Notes: a model not told the origin generated them from the sequence alone. A DNA stretch of 64,000 bases from Bacilli bacterium (GCA_017450205.1 JAFSVF010000024.1:7996-71995); one strand, 5' to 3'. Shown: positions 18,219-27,495, counted from the first letter of the stretch. A program made the numbers and translations.

Positions 18219-19127
18219 TTATACATCTAAAAGTGCTAATATAATTACCCCAATAAGTACTAGAAATATACAACCATATTCTTTTTTGGATAGTTTTTCT
18301 TTTAAAAATACTCTTGATAATAACATAGATAATACACAATAACTACCAATAATAGGAGCAGCTACAGTAGAATTACCACTCATTGCAGTTACATAGAATA
18401 TTTCTCCAGCTGTTTCAAATAAAGCAGCAGCTAGTTTTACTTTTTCTTTAATAATAGAAAAGTTTTCTTTCTTTATTTTTAAATAGATAAATGTAACCAA
18501 GCCATATAAAGCAAATGTGTATTCATATGCAATTAAAGAAGCAGTCTCTCCAATTAATTCTAATTTATCTAAATAAATTCCATCTAAAAAAGTACCTAAT
18601 CCATCAAGTAAACAATAACCTAAAGGAAAAAGTATAGTTAAAGTTAATATTTTTTGAAAAGTATTCTTTTTATTAAATTCTTTTCTTTCTTTTTTATTTT
18701 CATTTAAACCAATAATAGATAAACAAATAATTCCTATAAAAATAGAAACCAATGCTATATAGAATGGAAAATCATAATGTTCTTTAAAGAAAATAATAAA
18801 TAATAAAGCTACTATAACACCACTAGTATTCTGAATAGGACTAGAAATAGATAATTCTAAATATTTAAGACCTCTATAACCAATTACCATACTAGCAATA
18901 TAACAAAATGATACTGGCAAATACTTAATAATATCTAGTATTTGAATATTAGTATGAGTAGTAAGTAATAAGTATGTACCATGAATACCCATTACTAGAC
19001 CAACCATGATACCAGTCTTTAAATGATTTCTATTACCTTCTCCTCTATTTCCTAATTTATAAAATAAATCAGCAATTCCCCAAAATAAAAATGTTAATAA
19101 TGTAGCTATAGCTTGCATATCTTTCAC
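18219..19127 (-). CDS. DMT/EamA-family transporter
   Basis: About 10 TM helices with duplicated EamA-like halves. Confidence 0.7.
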   Translation of the reverse strand: MKDMQAIATLLTFLFWGIADLFYKLGNRGEGNRNHLKTGIMVGLVMGIHGTYLLLTTHTNIQILDIIKYLPVSFCYIASMVIGYRGLKYLELSISSPIQNTSGVIVALLFIIFFKEHYDFPFYIALVSIFIGIICLSIIGLNENKKERKEFNKKNTFQKILTLTILFPLGYCLLDGLGTFLDGIYLDKLELIGETASLIAYEYTFALYGLVTFIYLKIKKENFSIIKEKVKLAAALFETAGEIFYVTAMSGNSTVAAPIIGSYCVLSMLLSRVFLKEKLSKKEYGCIFLVLIGVIILALLDV

Positions 19128-19651: not shown

Positions 19652-19765
19652 TAAATCACCTACTATATTATTAAATTCTTAAATCAAATATTATATATTG
19701 CTGTTAAATTACTTTTCTTTTCATAATTATCTCCTTATAATTATTAGTTTACAACACTATATATA

Positions 19766-20269
19766 TTAATCAGTAGAGGATGCAAGTATTATTACATATC
19801 TATTCAATAATTTATCATAAATTGATATAGCAGCAGCACCCCACCATTCTAAACCATCATCAAAATAATTAGACCATTCCACATTCCAGTCATATATTTC
19901 TAAATTATCTTTTCCTTTAGGAAATAAAATATTATTTATTTTAATAAAATCTTCTATTTTATAATTTGTCTTATGAGGTGGATCTAGAAATAAAAACCAA
20001 TATGGTCTTTTGTATCCATTATCTATATTTTTTCTTTCTTTTTCATAATCTTTTGGTAATTGAAATAGTTCTTTTGGATCAATTTCTTTATATAACATTT
20101 TATCTTTATCTATTGTTATAAAATCATCGTCTTCTTTTATTTTATTCATAGCATATAACAAAACATCTTTATGATTTAAGTTGCTTTCTATTATAAAATA
20201 ATTTAGCACACATCTATTATACTTTTTATATTCTATAAAGAATGGATCATTTATTAATTCTTTAATCAT
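19766..20269 (-). CDS. hypothetical protein (last gene of the rlmD-remnant array)
   Basis: 167-aa ORF preceded by remnant F and an AAGGATG SD. Confidence 0.45.
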   Translation of the reverse strand: MIKELINDPFFIEYKKYNRCVLNYFIIESNLNHKDVLLYAMNKIKEDDDFITIDKDKMLYKEIDPKELFQLPKDYEKERKNIDNGYKRPYWFLFLDPPHKTNYKIEDFIKINNILFPKGKDNLEIYDWNVEWSNYFDDGLEWWGAAAISIYDKLLNRYVIILASSTD

Positions 20270-20297
20270 TTTTTCACATCCTTATTTTATCTCTTCT

Positions 20298-20415
20298 TAA
20301 ATATAGTGATATTTTCGTAATGCATGTCCTAGGACGAAGAACATATCATCAACCCTCGTTCTAAGTCAACAGAAGTTATTCTTAAACACCTAGAACCATA
20401 CCATTTCTAGGGTGA
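20298..20415 (-). pseudogene. decayed copy F of an rlmD/rumA 3' end
   Basis: Minus strand ..TTGACTTAGAACGAGGGTTGATGATATGTTCTTCGTCCTAGGACATGCATTACG.. aligns base-for-base with copy B over most positions. Reads YVLRPRT.., then decays. Confidence 0.5.
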
Positions 20416-20440
20416 AGATAATATCAATATCATTAAATTA

Positions 20441-20449
20441 ATTATAGCA
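20441..20449 (-). promoter_or_regulatory. extended -10 (TGCTATAAT) upstream of remnant F
   Basis: Follows the hairpin AGCAGAGTAAAATCTGTTTTTT. Confidence 0.4.
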
Positions 20450-20652
20450 TACAAAAAACAGATTTTACTCTGCTTTTTATATAACTATTAATTACATTTC
20501 AATTATTACTGTTTCATCTTTTAAATATTTCAAATTTCTTATTTTTATTTACTCTATTAATGATAATGTTAATATCTATATGTTAATTGATTCTTTAGAA
20601 TTATATAAACATAAAAAAAACTACTATTTCTAGTAATTCTTTTTTCATATTA

Positions 20653-21303
20653 TTAAATACTTCTTCCTTCTATTTTAGTATCAGGTTCTTCACTATTTTC
20701 ATTAATCATTTCTCTTAAATCACTATTTAGCATAGCTTCTAATTCTTTAGAAGGAGAATCAATTATTCCAGCAGTTATGGTATAACCCCTACCTTCATGT
20801 ACAATTTTTTGATCAGAAATTCCCTTTTTAGGACTTATTTTACATGCTTTTTCTATATCAACTGGAACTCCTCTTCTTAATAACTCTTCAATAATAGGAA
20901 ACTTACTATCAATGGTAGTGTAATTATCTCCAGTTCTTATAATTTTAGCAAAAGTAGGAGATAATGTTTCATAATGATCAAATATACTTTCAGCACTGTT
21001 ATATATAGTATCATCAGTATATTTTAATGCTTCTTCACGAGAGATTTCTGCGCCATTATTTTGTGCATATTCCATTAGTTTATTTGCCACTAAATCTCTA
21101 TCAGGCATTTTTTCACTTAACGTGTAACCAGTATTTGAATCATGAATTACACAAACACCTAAATTAGCTGCTATATCTTTAAGATCCTTTCCTGGCTGTG
21201 AACAAACACATTCCATAAAATAATTAATCAAGTCTAAATCTATATCTTCAAGATTAGTTGAGCCTGAATGTATATACCATTCTGGGTTTTTATAATATCC
21301 CAT
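20653..21303 (-). CDS. hypothetical protein (array cassette)
   Basis: 216-aa ORF with an AAAGGAGGAA SD. Confidence 0.45.
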   Translation of the reverse strand: MGYYKNPEWYIHSGSTNLEDIDLDLINYFMECVCSQPGKDLKDIAANLGVCVIHDSNTGYTLSEKMPDRDLVANKLMEYAQNNGAEISREEALKYTDDTIYNSAESIFDHYETLSPTFAKIIRTGDNYTTIDSKFPIIEELLRRGVPVDIEKACKISPKKGISDQKIVHEGRGYTITAGIIDSPSKELEAMLNSDLREMINENSEEPDTKIEGRSI

Positions 21304-21408
21304 ATATATATTCCTCCTTTACATTATTATAAATAGTATTTCATTATTTTACAATCACTTTTTCATGACTATTAAATTCTTCTTTCATCATTTGATAAAT
21401 TTTATTTC

Positions 21409-21480
21409 TTTCTTCCTTTGTAAAACTGTGATGGACTCGTAGTGGCTTGACCATGGTTGTTTGCGTATTAAGAATAATTG
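21409..21480 (-). pseudogene. decayed copy E of the rlmD 3' end (internally deleted)
   Basis: CACTACGAGTCCATCACAGTTTTACAAAGGAAG encodes HYESITVLQRK. The 5' part AATACGCAAACAACCATGG matches copy C (GATACGCAATCAACCCTGG). The middle ~70 nt is missing. Confidence 0.6.
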
Positions 21481-21482
21481 AT

Positions 21483-22388
21483 TCACTTTTTTTCTTCTAA
21501 GCTTTTTCTAAATTCTACCTCAAATTCATTTATTGAAGTATATCTATTATTTCTATCATAATTTGTAGCCTTTAATAGCACATTATATGTTTTAGTATTT
21601 AATTCAAATTCTTCTAAATCATTAGGAATAAACATCCCTATTTCATATCTTTTATCATTATTACTTACATTGCTAAATATATCAAAAATAATTGCTCCTA
21701 GAGTAAATTCATTTGTTAATTCATCAATAGTTGCCCCTAACTCATTTTCTTCAGGAGCTTTAAGTCTTTTAGTACCATAATAATCTTTTCCTAAATCATT
21801 TTTAGTTGGAAGTTTTCTAAATAAATCTATATCACAAAAAGTTGCTTCTTCTTTTTCAAAATTATAAATGATACTACTATCATAGAAATCTACAGCAACA
21901 TATCCAGCATTAATAAATGTTTCAAAAAAAGAAAATAGTTTATATACAACATCTAATCTTTTACTAATCTCTAATTTTTTAAATTTTTGTATAGGTGTTA
22001 TTAAAGTTGAATCATTTTTATACTTTTCAAAATTCCAATGATCAAATAAACACTCTCCATCCGCATATTCAAATATAACTGCAAAGAATTCATTAATATC
22101 AAACGAATCTATATACTTAATCAAATTTTGATGATGAATACTTTTATATTTTTCTACTGCATCTTTTAATAAATCTATTGACTCTTGTTCTGAAATTTCA
22201 GCTTCTACCGTTTTAGCTCCAGCTATTTTTATAAAATACTTCTTATTATCTTTCTGAACCCCAAATGATATGCATCCACTTCCAGTTTCATCTATTACTG
22301 AAAAAACAATTCCATAATCATTTATCCAGGAAAAATCTTGATATTCTTTTAATTTAAATTCTATATTATCTATTTTACATTTAACCAT
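21483..22388 (-). CDS. protein-kinase-like fold protein (degenerate catalytic motifs)
   Basis: Start moved to M36 (GAAAGGAAATAATT-ATG). ETGSGCISFG, FIKIAG, a VDFYDSSIIYN loop, CDIDLF and a LKAPEE (APE-like) motif. Confidence 0.45.
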   Translation of the reverse strand: MVKCKIDNIEFKLKEYQDFSWINDYGIVFSVIDETGSGCISFGVQKDNKKYFIKIAGAKTVEAEISEQESIDLLKDAVEKYKSIHHQNLIKYIDSFDINEFFAVIFEYADGECLFDHWNFEKYKNDSTLITPIQKFKKLEISKRLDVVYKLFSFFETFINAGYVAVDFYDSSIIYNFEKEEATFCDIDLFRKLPTKNDLGKDYYGTKRLKAPEENELGATIDELTNEFTLGAIIFDIFSNVSNNDKRYEIGMFIPNDLEEFELNTKTYNVLLKATNYDRNNRYTSINEFEVEFRKSLEEKK

Positions 22389-22390
22389 AA

Positions 22391-22530
22391 TTATTTCCTT
22401 TCTAATACCGTGACACTCTCGCAATGGGTTGTACTTGTACGATCGCCATGTCAAAAAATAGTGTTCTTGTACGATGACATAGTGACAACACATATTCTAC
22501 TCAGGGTAGTTCTTGTATGATTGCTATGTC
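22391..22530 (-). pseudogene. decayed copy D of the rlmD 3' end with internal sub-duplications
   Basis: CATTGCGAGAGTGTCACGGTATTAGAAAGGAAATAA encodes HCESVTVLERK*. GACATGGCGATCGTACAAGTAC recurs as GACATAGCAATCATACAAGAAC and as GTCATCGTACAAGAAC. Confidence 0.65.
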
Positions 22531-22606
22531 ATTTTTTAATTACATATATATGACTCTACTTTAATTATAATACACACATTCAGCACAACTCATATACAGA
22601 AATAAT

Positions 22607-23467
22607 TTATATGATTTTTTCTTTTTTAAGATAATCCTCAAGTATTTTAATGTTATCATTAATATTATCCTTTTCTTCCGGATCTTCTACTGAAATATAA
22701 CTTATAGTTATTAATAAATTATTATATTTAATAACATAATATTTATTGAATTCAACTACTTTATGTACATATTCACTTACTTCACCATTAGCATTCTTAT
22801 AATTATTTAAAAATTTATAATCATCCTCTTCTACATATTTACATTCACTCACATAATCATCATCAATGCTATTATTTCCATTTTCATATTCATATATACG
22901 AATTGTAAAACCATAGTTACTAAACAAAACCCCATTCTTATAATTCTTTACTGCATCAGTATTATTATGTGTTAAATTATACCAACTATATTCATCATCA
23001 TTATCATATAATTTAATAATATTATATAAGAGTTTTTCACAATCATTCTTATTTTTGTCTGGATATATTTCTTTAGCTGTATATTTATATTTATTATTAT
23101 CATTTTTTTCAAACAAATATTTTTTACCATTAACTTTAACTATACTACCTTGATATTCAATATTTAACTTTTCATTACCATTTGCATCATAATAAATATA
23201 TTTTTCAGGCCATAAACCAGATGATTTATTACTATTACCATATTCACCATATAATCCATTTAAGATAAAATCATCATTTCTTCTTCCCTTAATATACAAG
23301 TCATTTAAATCTACGTTAACCAGTTTAGATAGATCTTGATATTCAACAACATTATTTGCTTTATACATAAATAATATAAAACATATTATTAAGAAAAAGC
23401 CACCTATTCCTCCCATTAATAAATATTTAATTTTTCCGTTACTATTTTCTAAATTATTCATTTTCAT
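22607..23467 (-). CDS. membrane-anchored hypothetical protein (array cassette)
   Basis: 286 aa with an N-terminal TM helix. Rich in N, Y, K and D. Confidence 0.5.
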   Translation of the reverse strand: MKMNNLENSNGKIKYLLMGGIGGFFLIICFILFMYKANNVVEYQDLSKLVNVDLNDLYIKGRRNDDFILNGLYGEYGNSNKSSGLWPEKYIYYDANGNEKLNIEYQGSIVKVNGKKYLFEKNDNNKYKYTAKEIYPDKNKNDCEKLLYNIIKLYDNDDEYSWYNLTHNNTDAVKNYKNGVLFSNYGFTIRIYEYENGNNSIDDDYVSECKYVEEDDYKFLNNYKNANGEVSEYVHKVVEFNKYYVIKYNNLLITISYISVEDPEEKDNINDNIKILEDYLKKEKII

Positions 23468-23478
23468 TTCTCCTTTTT

Positions 23479-23621
23479 TTATTCTTTCTTTCTAAAATTG
23501 CGATGTCCTCGCAATGGGTGGACACCTATTCAGGAATAGATCATTTAACCATGTTTCATATTTAAAAACATGTTCCTATACATAAAACTGCCAGGGTTGA
23601 TTGCGTATCAGGAACATATGC
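23479..23621 (-). pseudogene. decayed copy C of the rlmD 3' end (near full ~143 nt)
   Basis: CATTGCGAGGACATCGCAATTTTAGAAAGAAAGAATAA encodes HCEDIAILERKN*. The upstream part is interrupted by stops. Its length equals the last ~47 codons of intact rlmD. Confidence 0.65.
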
Positions 23622-23640
23622 TTTTTTCATTTCTAATTAT

Positions 23641-23649
23641 ATTATAACA
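23641..23649 (-). promoter_or_regulatory. extended -10 (TGTTATAAT) upstream of remnant C
   Basis: Directly after the hairpin AAGCAGATGAAAAAAATCTGCTT that follows the HTH gene. Confidence 0.5.
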
Positions 23650-23700
23650 TACAAAAGCAGATTTTTTTCATCTGCTTAGTTGTTCTTAAAAGAGAAAACA

Positions 23701-24330
23701 TTACGATTGTTTATTTTTTGTTAAGACTTTCTTATGCCAACATTTTTTGTTACAATTCGGACATTTCATTCGCCATATGCCACCTTTAGTTATTCCACTA
23801 ATACCAAAAAACATTTGATTAAAAGTTGGAATATATTGGTGCTTACATTCTTGGCATTCATAATATCCTGTTTTTCGGATGATATTAAGATTGTATACTC
23901 CGAATAAAAGCAACATTACTAAAGCAAGTGCCATAATTGTGTTTCTTATTTCCATAGGCATTTCAATAAGTATTGTTGAAAGAACTATTAATAAATATAT
24001 AACAACTCCAAGAAATGTTATGATTCTATTTAAAATAAGAATTTTCTTATTTTTGCTTTCTATTTCACGCCTCATCTCTAAAAGATTTTCCTCTGCTTGT
24101 TCATTGTAAGATTCTTTTATAATTTTCTTTGCTGATAATAGTTCATTGACATTAATATCAAGCAACTTACATAACTCTAACATAATTCCAGCATCAGGCA
24201 TAGATCTTCCATTTTCCCAATGTGAAATTGCTCTATCAGTAATATTTAGTTTCTTAGCTAATTCTTGTTGAGTCATATTTTTTTCTTTTCTTACCTTAGC
24301 AATAAATTTTCCTATTTTTTCTTGATTCAT
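23701..24330 (-). CDS. membrane-tethered XRE-family HTH protein with C-terminal CxxC...CxxC zinc-ribbon
   Basis: Start moved to M8 (GGAGG SD). MTQQELAKKLNITDRAISHWENG HTH, two TM helices, then CQEC..CPNC. Confidence 0.7.
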   Translation of the reverse strand: MNQEKIGKFIAKVRKEKNMTQQELAKKLNITDRAISHWENGRSMPDAGIMLELCKLLDINVNELLSAKKIIKESYNEQAEENLLEMRREIESKNKKILILNRIITFLGVVIYLLIVLSTILIEMPMEIRNTIMALALVMLLLFGVYNLNIIRKTGYYECQECKHQYIPTFNQMFFGISGITKGGIWRMKCPNCNKKCWHKKVLTKNKQS

Positions 24331-24429
24331 AATTATACCTCCTCTATTCAAAATTGATTATAATATAAAAATTACTAATTGTATCCACAGTGTTAGTAGA
24401 GTTTCAAATAATTTTAATATGCACTATTA

Positions 24430-24448
24430 TATGAAAATGTTTTTCATA
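24430..24448. promoter_or_regulatory. candidate operator palindrome upstream of the HTH gene
   Basis: TATGAAAA-TGT-TTTTCATA, a perfect 8-bp inverted repeat. Confidence 0.25.
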
Positions 24449-24484
24449 CTAATTATGACCTATTCCCTATAACATAGTTAAATA

Positions 24485-24527
24485 CTAAAAAATCCCTTTT
24501 TTTAATTATTTTTAGCAAAAAGGGATT
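24485..24527 (-). terminator. rho-independent terminator just after remnant B
   Basis: AATCCCTTTTT-loop-AAAAAGGGATT followed by TTTTT on the minus strand. Confidence 0.65.
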
Positions 24528-24557
24528 ATAAATATTTTTAAATAATATAACTTTTCC

Positions 24558-24690
24558 TTATTTTTCAATGGTTTTACGACATAGTACTGATACAGTTTCA
24601 ACATGCCCTGTCCTGGGGCGAAGAACATATCGTTTAACCTAGTTCTAGGTCAATAGAATATGTTTCCCAGTACAAGTTTTAACAATTACA
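24558..24690 (-). pseudogene. decayed copy B of an rlmD/rumA 3' end
   Basis: In the frame ending at TAA it reads YVLRPRTGHVETVSVLCRKTIEK*. The intact gene ends NMFPRTYHCESIVVLERK*. A 5-nt insertion after GATATGTT shifts the frame, and there are stops upstream. Confidence 0.7.
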
Positions 24691-24693
24691 TTT

Positions 24694-25224
24694 TTATTTT
24701 CCAAAAGAACATAGTGAATTTCCTTTTTCAGAAACATAACAATTCCAATAACTATAACCAACTTCTACATAACCATTTTGAAAAGCGTTGGCATACATTC
24801 CATAAGCACTACAATGAATATTGGTATCTGAAATTGTACAATTATTACTATCAAATATTTTTAATAAAACATTTTTATTATGTTCATAATATGATGAATC
24901 AGCTCCTTTTAATGAAACCATATTATTATCAATAATAAATTCAACATAACTTTCTTTTACAATATCATTTTTTATAATGTGCTTATAATACATTTTCTTA
25001 TTGTTAAAATCTTTTATAGCAACTTCACTTGACTTGTATTGTTTTATACTACTTGGAATTTTTTTACCAATTGTAATCAGCTTATCACAATGATCTTTTC
25101 CTTCACAATAGTTTATTGTATATATAGTACCAGTAAAACCATTTTTTTCACTTTTTCTATTATATAGAAATATTATTATTGAAATTAATACTATAATTGT
25201 TATTATAATAATTATTTTCTTCAT
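24694..25224 (-). CDS. membrane-anchored Cys-containing hypothetical protein (first cassette)
   Basis: 176 aa with an N-terminal TM helix. Its ATG lies 2 nt after the rlmD stop, and its SD (GAAAGGAAG) is formed by the last rlmD codons. Confidence 0.5.
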   Translation of the reverse strand: MKKIIIIITIIVLISIIIFLYNRKSEKNGFTGTIYTINYCEGKDHCDKLITIGKKIPSSIKQYKSSEVAIKDFNNKKMYYKHIIKNDIVKESYVEFIIDNNMVSLKGADSSYYEHNKNVLLKIFDSNNCTISDTNIHCSAYGMYANAFQNGYVEVGYSYWNCYVSEKGNSLCSFGK

Positions 25225-25226
25225 CT

Positions 25227-26327
25227 TTACTTCCTTTCTAAAACTACGATGGACTCACAATGATATGTCCTGGGAAACATATTAACTGGAGTTACTTCTA
25301 ATATATCAAAATTAGTATTTAATTCATTTAAATCTCTTGACAATGTAGCTGGATCACATGATACATAAATTATTTTTTCAGGATTAATTTCTATTAAATA
25401 CTTAATTGTCTTAGAATCAAGTCCTGCTCTTGGAGGATCTATAATTACTAAATTAACATCTTTAAAAGTATCAATCTTATTCTCTACTTTATCACAAATA
25501 AAACTTATATTATTAGTATTATTTAATTCAATATTTCTATTCGCATCTTTAATATTAGATTCACTATAATCTATTCCAATAACACTATCTACTAAATCAC
25601 TAATATATATTCCTATAGTACCAGTACCACAATATAAATCCAAACAATTAGAATACTTCTTATTAATAGATTTTCTAACTAAATCATATAATTCTTTAGT
25701 TAAATATTTATTTACTTGAAAGAATGAATCTATAGATAAATAATATTTCTTATCTCCAATACTAGTAATAATAGAATTATTACCATTCATTAACACCTCA
25801 CTACTATCATTACTACTTCTAATTACTATTTCATTACTATCTGCTTTAATATTCTTAATATTATTATTAATTACTTTATCAAGTAATAAACAATTATCAA
25901 TAGGAATAATATTCTTAGTACCTTTAGCAAAGTATCCTATTTTACCTTTACTTTTATGAAAAGTAACTTTATTACGATAGTTATTTTCCGGTCCAGAGAT
26001 AATACTATTTACTTTTACATTTAATTTACCTATATGATTTAATAAATCTTTTACTTTTTCTTCTTTGAAAAGATTTTCTTTTTCATAACTTAAATGTCTT
26101 AAACTACAACCACCACATAAATCATAATAAGGACAATCTACTTTAATTCTATCTTTACTAGGTTCAATAATAGATACTACTTTAGCTTCTATATATTTAG
26201 ACTTTTCTTTAATTATATCTATATCTACTATTTCTCCAGGTAAGGCATTCTCAACAAAACAAATTCTATTATTAAGATATGTAATACCTCTACCAAAATT
26301 ATCTAGTTTTTCTATTTTAACTCTCAT
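25227..26327 (-). CDS. rlmD: 23S rRNA (uracil-5)-methyltransferase, RlmD/RumA family
   Basis: TRAM-like N-terminus, CPYYDLCGGCSLRH Fe-S cysteines, a DLYCGTGTIG SAM motif and IDPPRAG. Start moved to M7 because the TATAAT box overlaps the first ATG and GAGGGA precedes M7. Confidence 0.85.
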   Translation of the reverse strand: MRVKIEKLDNFGRGITYLNNRICFVENALPGEIVDIDIIKEKSKYIEAKVVSIIEPSKDRIKVDCPYYDLCGGCSLRHLSYEKENLFKEEKVKDLLNHIGKLNVKVNSIISGPENNYRNKVTFHKSKGKIGYFAKGTKNIIPIDNCLLLDKVINNNIKNIKADSNEIVIRSSNDSSEVLMNGNNSIITSIGDKKYYLSIDSFFQVNKYLTKELYDLVRKSINKKYSNCLDLYCGTGTIGIYISDLVDSVIGIDYSESNIKDANRNIELNNTNNISFICDKVENKIDTFKDVNLVIIDPPRAGLDSKTIKYLIEINPEKIIYVSCDPATLSRDLNELNTNFDILEVTPVNMFPRTYHCESIVVLERK

Positions 26328-26400
26328 ATTATCCCTCAAAAACATTATAGCATAAATACATATAAATATAATTAGTATCCATACTAATAATGGTGATTTT

Positions 26401-27495
26401 ATGCCTTTATTTAGTAAACTTGGTAGAAATATATCTACTGTTACTTCAGAATTATCATTAGCAGGTCCTAAAGATAGTTTTACTGAAATATATGATACTA
26501 ATCTAGGATTAATAAAGAAAAGAATTACTAGTACTAAATTAAAACTAAAAGAATTAAATATAGGTAAATATACTAATACAAAAGTAGGAATATTATATAT
26601 AGATGATATTTGTAAAGAAAGTATTATTAATCATGTAACTAATAGATTATCTAAAATAGATATAGATGGAATTATTGATTCTAGTTACTTAAAATATTCT
26701 TTAGAAAATAAATTTAATTTATTCCCTACTATAATACTTACAGAAAGGCCTGATAAATGCTCTATGGCCTTACTTGAAGGAAAAATCATAGTATTAGTCG
26801 ACAATAGTTGTTTTGCTCTAATATTACCTAGTTTTTTTATTGATTTCTTTCATACAACAGATGACTATTATCAAAAATCAATTAACACTAGTTTTATTAG
26901 AATAATTAGATTATTAGCTTTTATAATAGCTATATTTATTCCAGCTCTTTATATTTCAGTAACGACTAGAAACTATAATTTAATACCTCTACCATTATTA
27001 TTAATGTTAAAAGCCGGAAGAACCTTTGTACCTTTTCCAGCTTATATAGAAGCTTTATTTATGATTATATGTTTTGAAATATTAAAAGAATCTGACTTAA
27101 GAATGTCTAATACTAGTGGATCAGCCATTTCAATCTTAGGTGGATTAATACTAGGAGATGCTGCAGTAGCAGCTGGTATAGTATCACCTATAATGATTAT
27201 AATAATAGCTATATCATCAATTGCTGGTCTAATATTTACTTCTATTGAATTAAGTAATACTCTAAGAACTTATAAGATACTTTTATTAATATTAAGTACT
27301 TTTCTAGGAATATATGGAGTTTATATAGGATTAGTAATTTTAATCTATAATATTTTAACTACTAAAATATTTGGATACAGTTACTTGTCATTAGATAAAA
27401 ATGAACTTAAAGATTCTATTATTAAATTAGATACAAATATTAAATATCGTAATTCTAAATTAACTAATAATATTAAGAGAGGTAGTTTAAAATGA
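26401..27495 (+). CDS. spore germination protein, GerA-family A subunit (N-terminally short)
   Basis: GPKDSFTEIYDTNLGLIKKRI and a C-terminal multi-TM region typical of GerAA/GerKA. It is about 120-130 aa shorter at the N-terminus than typical members. Confidence 0.6.
   Translation: MPLFSKLGRNISTVTSELSLAGPKDSFTEIYDTNLGLIKKRITSTKLKLKELNIGKYTNTKVGILYIDDICKESIINHVTNRLSKIDIDGIIDSSYLKYSLENKFNLFPTIILTERPDKCSMALLEGKIIVLVDNSCFALILPSFFIDFFHTTDDYYQKSINTSFIRIIRLLAFIIAIFIPALYISVTTRNYNLIPLPLLLMLKAGRTFVPFPAYIEALFMIICFEILKESDLRMSNTSGSAISILGGLILGDAAVAAGIVSPIMIIIIAISSIAGLIFTSIELSNTLRTYKILLLILSTFLGIYGVYIGLVILIYNILTTKIFGYSYLSLDKNELKDSIIKLDTNIKYRNSKLTNNIKRGSLK

Follow-up and report, generated by a model that had tools for sequence, protein, structure and literature searches.

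Downstream of rlmD, a RumA-type gene for a 23S rRNA uracil-5 methyltransferase, the 64-kb stretch of Bacilli bacterium DNA analyzed here (GCA_017450205.1 JAFSVF010000024.1:7996-71995; hereafter the window, with W denoting both the window and its array) carries a row of six units. We consider it likely that they are small integrative cassettes, arrayed by way of the attachment (att) sites of a family of large serine recombinases (LSRs) that targets the conserved ...MFPxTxH/VE... codons at the end of rlmD/rumA. Each cassette would open with a tail of 36-48 nt, which supplies a fresh coding sequence for the last 12-16 RlmD residues and lends its final codons to the cargo as a ribosome-binding site, continue with one gene, rarely an operon, oriented as rlmD, and close with a ~100-nt attP-type left arm of three direct repeats that ends 4 nt before the crossover CA. 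A circle joining arm to tail and gene would integrate at the rlmD junction and give rlmD a new tail, while the old tail, now behind the arm of the incomer, would shift one place downstream; repeated integration would build the array, with the newest cassette nearest rlmD. The anatomy of the units, their exact junctions, the exchange of cassettes between genomes and the physical link between arms and LSR genes can all be read directly from the loci that we compared.

The window has a G+C content of 26%, and one strand, the minus strand, holds every gene from rlmD down to an EamA transporter gene. We compared it with 47 loci around rlmD homologues from species-representative genomes, which are metagenome-assembled genomes of uncultured gut and rumen bacteria labeled Bacilli, Erysipelotrichaceae, Mollicutes and similar, and with 32 contigs from a metagenome scan seeded with the class-1 arm repeat motif; L-numbers denote these related loci and contigs, and P-numbers denote LSR homologues. 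The rlmD gene (25227-26345) is intact, as the Pfam domains TRAM and tRNA_U5-meth_tr confirm, and its C-terminus reads ...NMFPRTYHCESIVVLERK before the stop, exactly as quoted in a first-pass annotation of the window. Its true start is probably 26327 rather than the called start, and a 366-aa form of RlmD is recorded in 24 contigs. Within the gene, a candidate attB-type left half-site, AATATGTTTCCCAGGACATAT (25263-25283; codons N-M-F-P-R-T-Y), directly precedes the candidate crossover CA in the His codon (25262-25261). The current rlmD tail that starts there, HCESIVVLERK and stop (25227-25262), is part of the first cassette, c1: it accompanies the c1 gene elsewhere, and the two travel together in L054, L078, L063 and L074 behind other arms. 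The last codons of this tail, GAAAGGAAG, read as a ribosome-binding site for the c1 gene.

Five displaced rlmD ends, copies B to F, follow on the same strand downstream of rlmD. A tblastn search of the window with the last 70 aa of RlmD returned D, C, B and E as the top four non-self matches, all on the rlmD strand and limited to the last 11-15 residues. A 10-residue position-specific scoring matrix (PSSM) made from intact rlmD ends, with the His of ...TYH as its first residue, scored copies B, C, D and E at 31.5, 21.3, 31.9 and 18.9 bits. Scanned in six frames over 1.14 Mb (the window plus related loci) at a threshold of 12 bits, the same matrix gave 173 matches on the rlmD strand, comprising 55 intact ends and 118 displaced ones, against 0 on the opposite strand. 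Displaced ends were present in L001, L005, L006, L010, L014, L016, L021, L030, L037, L039, L040 and L047; apart from a single weak stray upstream of rlmD (L024:4544, 14.7 bits), displaced tails lay downstream of rlmD and co-oriented with it.

The first-pass annotation had described the five copies as decayed gene ends of ~143 nt (47 codons) broken by stops or frameshifts. Their number and common orientation stand, but their extent was overstated: comparison of junctions showed that the rlmD-derived part of each copy runs from CAT (His) to the stop and covers 36-48 nt, or 12-16 codons. Compared with the W rlmD tail at the nucleotide level, tails C, D and E reached z scores of 12.6, 7.6 and 16.3 against shuffles, whereas the 110 nt upstream of each CAT matched rlmD no better than shuffles in any of the five window copies (z -0.1 to 1.3). 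The ~100 nt upstream of CAT is therefore a separate conserved element rather than rlmD, and it is this element that had been taken for a broken gene end. The tails themselves have kept the character of coding sequence, with the in-frame stop 11-15 codons after His retained in 108 of 114 displaced tails and codon-position entropies (0.86/0.64/1.19) that resemble those of intact tails, third positions varying most; these properties indicate that displaced tails are still usable gene ends. Their final codons (GAAAGGAG/GAAAGGAAG) resemble a ribosome-binding site, and the next gene begins no more than about 20 nt past the tail stop in 55% of cases.

The ~100-nt arms form several classes that are common to distant genomes. 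The class-2 arm of W, for example, is 92% identical to an arm in L006, with the RlmD proteins 52% identical. Every arm class contains three direct repeats of ~20 nt, the last of which ends 4 nt before CAT, and autocorrelation of the arms at 28 junctions gave peaks only at shifts of 32-33 and 78-79. In the metagenome contigs, the class-1 motif was followed by a tail in 32 of 32 cases. The core common to the junctions is CA(T) only, which is compatible with a 2-bp crossover. Among 48 distinct intact rlmD ends, 44 have ATGTT (the Met-Phe codons) at a distance of 13 nt from CA; of the 43 arms in which ATGTT occurs, 41 have it at 18 nt, the offset being shown for such arms only. A complete element in L090, described below, likewise has the +5 offset. 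A zinc-ribbon-domain motif lying 5 bp nearer the center in attB than in attP is a hallmark of serine integrases (PMC3783163), and the 13- versus 18-nt spacing matches this LSR attB/attP shift. We read the ~100-nt upstream element as an attP-type arm of an LSR. A phage origin found no support when five arm motifs were compared with IMG/VR, which gave only two chance 17-mer matches (L050, L051).

Cassette boundaries are exact, and whole cassettes are exchanged between genomes. A 351-bp stretch shared at 99% identity by L001:11735-12085 and L014:18706-19056 runs from CAT to CAT between flanks that are unrelated on both sides, and consists of a tail, a 68-aa open reading frame (ORF) and an arm. 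Cassette c1 recurs with the same end points and 90-100% identity in at least 10 loci (L001, L054, L063, L065, L066, L074 and L078 among them), behind rlmD or behind other arm classes; in L078:103-1023 it stands twice in tandem, the copies being 94.7% and 98.9% identical to W and each having its tail and arm. In L066, c1 is 99.4% identical to W from CAT exactly, compared with 76.8% for the last 500 nt of rlmD, and in L069, c4 is 97.6% identical compared with 74.9% for rlmD, although c4 ranks seventh in the L069 array, against fourth in W, and lies behind another arm class. The identity break falls exactly at the left half-site/CAT in both. L054 is 99-100% identical to W across the rlmD end, c1 and its arm, and has one additional cassette before a c2-like unit. 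One tail and gene can stand behind differing arm classes, and one arm can stand before differing tails. The bounded cassettes (n = 83) have a median length of 780 bp, an LSR is encoded in 1 of the 83, and sequence conservation of the arms equals or exceeds that of the cargo gene.

These comparisons support the repeated site-specific insertion with replacement ends that had been proposed at first pass: the junctions fall precisely at a single codon, related genomes differ in their arrays, and an LSR family adjoins the same arms in related contigs. The invariance among relatives that would have pointed to an old local duplication was seen at strain level, in 24 contigs with identical RlmD, but arrays are polymorphic at species level and above.

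The window has no visible recombinase, as had been noted from its sequence. A phmmer screen with only two seeds, gamma-delta resolvase and XerD, gave no match to either the serine or the tyrosine recombinases across the window, 49 loci and the 47 genomes, and Pfam over 21 kb around rlmD gave no recombinase, with GerA-family and unrelated genes upstream of rlmD. LSR genes are present in related contigs (L079, L084-L100). In the metagenome contig L079, a gene for a 597-aa protein with Resolvase, Recombinase and Zn_ribbon_recom domains stops ~10 nt before a complete class-1c arm, which is followed by CAT and a tail. This protein has thousands of homologues, and the genes of the four that we viewed in context (P0010, P0006, P0019 and P0007) are each followed by a three-repeat arm, CA and a tail. 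Identical units of LSR and arm are joined to differing tails and downstream genes across contigs, as expected for the right junction of an integrated element. Past the arm in L079, the sequence is 100% identical, from CAT, to the first cassette of the seven-cassette array of L069, so that a recombinase-bearing element has inserted at the rlmD-proximal position of an array of this kind. The closest solved structure to the L079 LSR is 3g13, the catalytic domain of a 'putative conjugative transposon recombinase' (E = 1e-58), and the protein matches the N-terminal domain of TnpX only at E = 2e-6.

Arms adjacent to the genes for these ~598-aa LSRs are closely similar to arms of cassettes that encode no LSR. 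The L079 arm is 80-87% identical over ~116 nt to many LSR-less cassette arms and 80% identical over 102 nt to W copy F, which is the arm of c5; it also matches the inner two repeats of W copy B. The LSR-adjacent arm in L100 is 94% identical over 101 nt to that of a cassette in L006 that carries an MFS gene. We considered this L006 cassette as a deletion derivative of the L100 element and rejected the idea, as only arm and tail match. In the cases seen, arm class follows LSR clade, with class 1c in L079, a class-1b-like arm at P0006 and class 5 types at P0007 and P0010. Complete elements occupy the same site. In L090-L093, an element of 8.06 kb starts at the His codon of a RumA-type gene for a 460-aa protein and extends to a displaced tail; attL lies at that codon, and the old tail marks attR. 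The element encodes ParB-like proteins, TnpV, a DpnII restriction-modification system, the recombinase and a DUF2806 protein. The site in L098 is filled by another element, one that encodes a type III restriction system. LSR elements at rlmD carry restriction systems as well as a PemK toxin. From the exact recurrence of the LSR-less cassettes we infer that they are moved by an LSR acting in trans, or in cis from a co-resident element; proximal cassettes are presumably transcribed from rlmD.

In the window, exactly one gene lies between consecutive end copies, as reported at first pass. Cassette c1 (24606-25262, 657 bp) comprises the current rlmD tail, a gene for a 176-aa secreted protein (24694-25224) and a class-1a arm (24606-24693). 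Cassette c2 (23517-24605) opens with displaced tail B, HVETVSVLCRKTIEK and stop (24558-24605), and contains its own leader, a helix-turn-helix (HTH)/membrane/zinc-ribbon gene (23701-24351; Pfam HTH_3), a terminator-like hairpin and a class-2 arm (about 23517-23620); a copy in L072 is 94% identical and is followed by a different cassette. Cassette c3 (22427-23516) opens with displaced tail C, HCEDIAILERKN... (23481-23516), from which the usual in-frame stop is gone: read in frame (23454-23516), it gives HCEDIAILERKNKKRRNENE and stop, extending into the start of the next gene, and the ERKN ending assigned to it earlier was a frame slip. Its gene encodes a 286-aa membrane protein (22607-23467), and its class-3 arm (about 22427-22533) has three ATCRTACAAGNAC repeats at spacings of 32 and 78 nt. 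A copy of c3 in L058 is 84% identical, and class-3 arms also occur in L023, L053 and L069.

Cassette c4 (21445-22426) consists of displaced tail D, HCESVTVLERK and stop (22391-22426), a kinase-like gene (21483-22388) whose Pfam Pkinase match is weak, and an arm (21445-21482) cut down to the opening repeat of the 'TDTDTT' class joined to the final ~12 nt. The same cassette has a full 'TDTDTT'-class arm in L053, L069 and L058, and the copies in L053 and L069, 97.3-97.6% identical to that of W, begin exactly at CAT. The internal deletion ascribed at first pass to copy E is real, but it lies inside this arm and not inside an rlmD copy. The c4 protein has weak PADLOC matches to the defense kinases mad6 and PD-T4-6; PADLOC defense annotation gave weak kinase and HTH matches only. 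Cassette c5 (20323-21444) opens with displaced tail E, HYESITVLQRK... (21409-21444), whose junction is probably dead, given the CAC start and the missing stop at the usual position, and continues with a 216-aa gene (20653-21303) and a class-1c arm (about 20323-20424). Copy F, claimed earlier as a further gene end, falls below the PSSM threshold, but a decayed tail, HYENITIFKKR and stop (20287-20322, with CAT at 20322), does stand behind this arm, which is homologous to class-1 arms. Behind tail F, the last recognizable unit, c6 (19766-20286), holds a 167-aa gene (19766-20269) taken from the ORF list.

Arm and tail scans gave no match downstream of the 167-aa gene. Just past it, at 19725-19765, 'gtgttgtaaactaataattataaggagataattATG' resembles the 3' part of a tail (..AAGGAGATAAnnATG), and this stretch may be a further, armless relic junction ahead of a 159-aa gene. 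The EamA transporter gene (18219-19127; Pfam EamA) forms the far boundary of the variable region, where synteny with relatives returns; L001 and L058 align with W again from about 19186-19152 onward. Cassettes c2 and c5 possess their own leaders and terminator-like hairpins, and the cassettes are co-oriented and compact. Just upstream of their arms (23641-23677 and 20441-20476), c2 and c5 share a ~35-nt element, AAGCAGA...TCTG(C)TTTTGTATGYTATAAT, in which a terminator-like hairpin is followed by an extended -10-like TGnTATAAT; judged from this layout, the element could end cargo transcription and restart it across the junction. A scan of the array found promoter-like sites no commoner than in shuffles and one terminator-like hairpin. 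The W array looks quiescent, because no LSR is encoded in the 64 kb, two junctions (E and F) are degraded, and contigs with identical RlmD keep largely the same neighboring genes; the internally deleted E arm and the missing arm after the 167-aa gene are further signs of inactivity. On the other side of rlmD, its divergent neighbor is a GerA-family spore-germination gene (26401-27495). Given this neighbor, the organism may be a spore former, though some relatives carry Mollicutes/Tenericutes labels.

Cargo elsewhere extends beyond single small genes. Operon-sized cassettes with tail/arm junctions include L014:12831-17280, which encodes a three-subunit FeFe hydrogenase, and L075:76-7713, bounded by tail and arm, with two NrdD-type reductases, an activase and a thioredoxin-reductase-like gene. 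Proteins of 270-325 aa with an ORF6N domain (KilA-N-like DNA-binding) occur inside or at the end of arrays in four genomes (L001:12452-13384, L006:15629-16447, L014:11780-12658 and L076:13274-14248). Other cargo includes transporters, NUDIX and HD enzymes and possible defense genes, and a Pfam search of cassette proteins from L006, L014, L001 and L005 returned cargo functions only.

Several other histories could leave repeated gene ends behind rlmD. The one we take most seriously, though we think it unlikely, is that the array is a fossil record only, its units being remnants of full-size LSR elements (8-20 kb) that integrated independently, were cut down to one gene each by internal deletion and never moved as cassettes. 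Full LSR elements do integrate at the same rlmD codon, W combines degraded junctions at E and F with the lack of an LSR, arrays are stable among contigs with identical RlmD, and decay of this kind is the standard route to cis-mobilizable elements (CIMEs) (PMC5704250). On such a history, however, one would not expect the same small cassettes (c1 in at least 10 loci, c4 and the 351-bp unit) with identical end points in many genomes and at varied array positions, nor c1 twice in tandem in L078. Independent deletions would not give so uniform a format either, with a 780-bp median, an LSR in only 1 of 83 bounded cassettes, a gene start within 20 nt of the tail stop in 55% and arms conserved at least as well as cargo. 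The arms are homologous to those of LSR elements, and we saw no intermediate with partial backbone genes. Import anchored by homology in rlmD had been offered at first pass as leaving the same footprint. In this reading, DNA from relatives would recombine at one end within rlmD and at the other within tails or arms, with no site-specific enzyme. Such import could draw on the tails as short conserved repeats, and in c1 and c4 an identical gene follows a tail whose first ~18 nt are mosaic, as homologous exchange or conversion predicts. As the main mechanism we regard it as very improbable, since identical cassettes abut unrelated arm classes, where there is no homology, and the junction is always the same CAT; at least five arm classes stop at one and the same nucleotide within one codon, and neither the LSR linkage nor the 5-bp offset plays a part in such import, which may still explain the mosaic ~18 nt.

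We give even less credence to an integron-like tyrosine recombinase acting on folded single-stranded sites, or to host Xer acting on dif modules, with the arms serving as attC. Co-oriented, compact, mostly promoterless-looking cassettes in an array without a recombinase would suit such a system, and folding of the arms is somewhat stronger than that of shuffles (mean z -1.2; controls, -0.5). This excess is modest and the arm repeats are direct rather than inverted, and on these grounds we rejected attC-like folded arms; the common core is just CA(T), arms sit immediately after serine recombinase genes, and no tyrosine recombinase was found near any array in a screen with a single XerD seed. 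On reading the junctions we noticed no dif-like site (28 bp, 11-6-11), the CA(T) core being flanked by direct repeats. Ancient local duplication of the rlmD end with no mobility at all, which has nothing beyond the repeated tails to recommend it, is refuted by the exact cassette boundaries and by the jump in identity from ~75% to 97-99% at the junction, as it is by array content and order that vary between relatives; we see almost no prospect that it is correct.

Some observations sit poorly with LSR-built cassettes, the explanation we prefer. Neither an excised circle nor an empty site was observed, and the screen with only two seeds found no LSR in the window or, for the 47 genomes, up to 10 kb from rlmD. 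The ties between LSRs and arms cover classes 1 and 5, with classes 2, 3, 4 and 'TDTDTT' untied, and the metagenome sample is biased to class 1 by its seed motif. At strain level, the 24 contigs with identical RlmD carry largely the neighboring genes of the window. Canonical LSRs need an attP of ~50 bp and do not recombine attL/attR-like sites without a directionality factor. Such enzymes do not account for the three repeats or the interchangeable right half-sites, and a canonical serine integrase would see the arm/tail junction as attR-like; as any tail can serve as right half-site here, this clade may be bidirectional or may work with an unseen factor. Finally, the tails begin with ~18 nt that are mosaic with respect to the cassettes. 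W, L066 and L063 share the c1 gene and arm at 100% identity, yet the first 17 nt of the tail show 4 differences (window 25246-25262 versus L066:11361-11380 and L063:322-340), and in c4, likewise, 5 of 23 differences fall within the first 19 nt. This pattern suggests that another exchange process also acts, and it points to short-patch conversion or homologous exchange between tails.

That LSRs target rumA, and that elements accrete in tandem, is already known (PMC4701971, PMC5357655, PMC5704250). Single serine integrases of streptococcal integrative and conjugative or mobilizable elements (ICEs/IMEs) and of CTn5 of C. difficile target rumA, as the first-pass annotation had stated for streptococci (PMC4701971, PMC5357655), and in these elements the integrase gene lies beside attR and the rumA 3' end is exchanged (PMC4701971, PMC5357655, PMC5704250). 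The system at rlmD shares with them (the streptococcal Ser_4 group and CTn5) the target gene family, a terminal integrase gene and 3'-end exchange. Unlike the W-type units of 0.35-1.1 kb without an integrase, however, those elements span 10-100 kb with transfer or mobilization genes, and they are described as disrupting or frame-shifting rumA, with attR inside the integrase gene, whereas the cassettes here give RlmD back an in-frame C-terminus and form stacks of up to seven. Because no LSR is encoded in the 64-kb window, the W cassettes are non-autonomous relatives of the rumA/rlmD LSR elements and not full members. Tandem accretion is established for CIMEs, and their units are thought to be moved by the integrase of a related element (PMC5704250). 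Like the cassettes, CIMEs of the ICESt1/ICESt3 type are flanked by att sites, lack integrase and transfer genes and stack at a gene 3' end, but they are decayed islands run by tyrosine integrases and show no uniform single-gene format, built-in ribosome-binding site or multi-class three-repeat arms.

The cassettes also invite comparison with staphylococcal cassette chromosome (SCC/SCCmec) elements, in which large serine recombinases act at the 3' end of orfX (rlmH) and tandem arrays include recombinase-less pseudo-elements. Both systems combine an LSR, the 3' end of an rRNA methyltransferase gene and tandem arrays with repeat-bounded, recombinase-less units. SCC differs in its target (rlmH rather than rlmD), in its Ccr enzymes and in units that are multi-gene and range from kilobases to tens of kilobases, and no replacement coding tail with a ribosome-binding site is described for it. 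The Enterococcus cassette chromosome is a comparable case (PMC6222049). Tn4451/Tn4453, mobilized by TnpX, resemble the rlmD elements as small LSR elements that excise as circles, and one rlmD element carries a TnpV homologue; TnpX, in contrast, uses a GA crossover and loosely defined targets and is not rlmD-specific. TnpX works in both directions without a separate factor, an ability that the rlmD system may need. A literature search found no description of LSR-based cassette arrays or multi-repeat attP sites, nor of a miniature single-gene format, an in-frame replacement tail with a ribosome-binding site, or arrays of up to seven units.

The closest parallel in design is with integrons, which likewise hold ordered, compact, co-oriented and mostly promoterless single-gene cassettes, each ending in a recombination site, insert new cassettes at one fixed proximal site and keep displaced cassettes as a reservoir. 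The rlmD arrays differ in using a serine enzyme rather than IntI, double-stranded direct-repeat sites rather than folded attC hairpins, and the end of a housekeeping gene as platform with no integrase gene beside the array; no tyrosine recombinase, and hence no IntI-type gene with attI/Pc, was found in the window or related loci with the XerD seed. We tentatively suggest, as a possibility somewhat short of even, that the system is a functional analogue of the integron built on an LSR, with the rlmD end as entry site, three-repeat arms as cassette sites and spare in-frame C-termini. On this suggestion, the first cassette would be co-expressed with rlmD and rlmD would never be broken, equivalent tails would serve as right half-sites so that each integration regenerates both the entry site and an arm site, and an LSR supplied in trans would be free to carry out reversible, factor-independent exchange. 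For enzymology and genome engineering, the system would offer several natural arm classes for one conserved attB, a three-repeat attP and possibly reversible exchange. If the suggestion is correct, gut and rumen Firmicutes, in which classical integrons are rare, evolved the integron design independently, around a serine recombinase. Because its cargo includes whole metabolic modules such as FeFe hydrogenase and anaerobic ribonucleotide reductase, the rlmD locus may be one of the main ways in which low-GC, uncultured bacteria of gut and rumen adapt to their niches.

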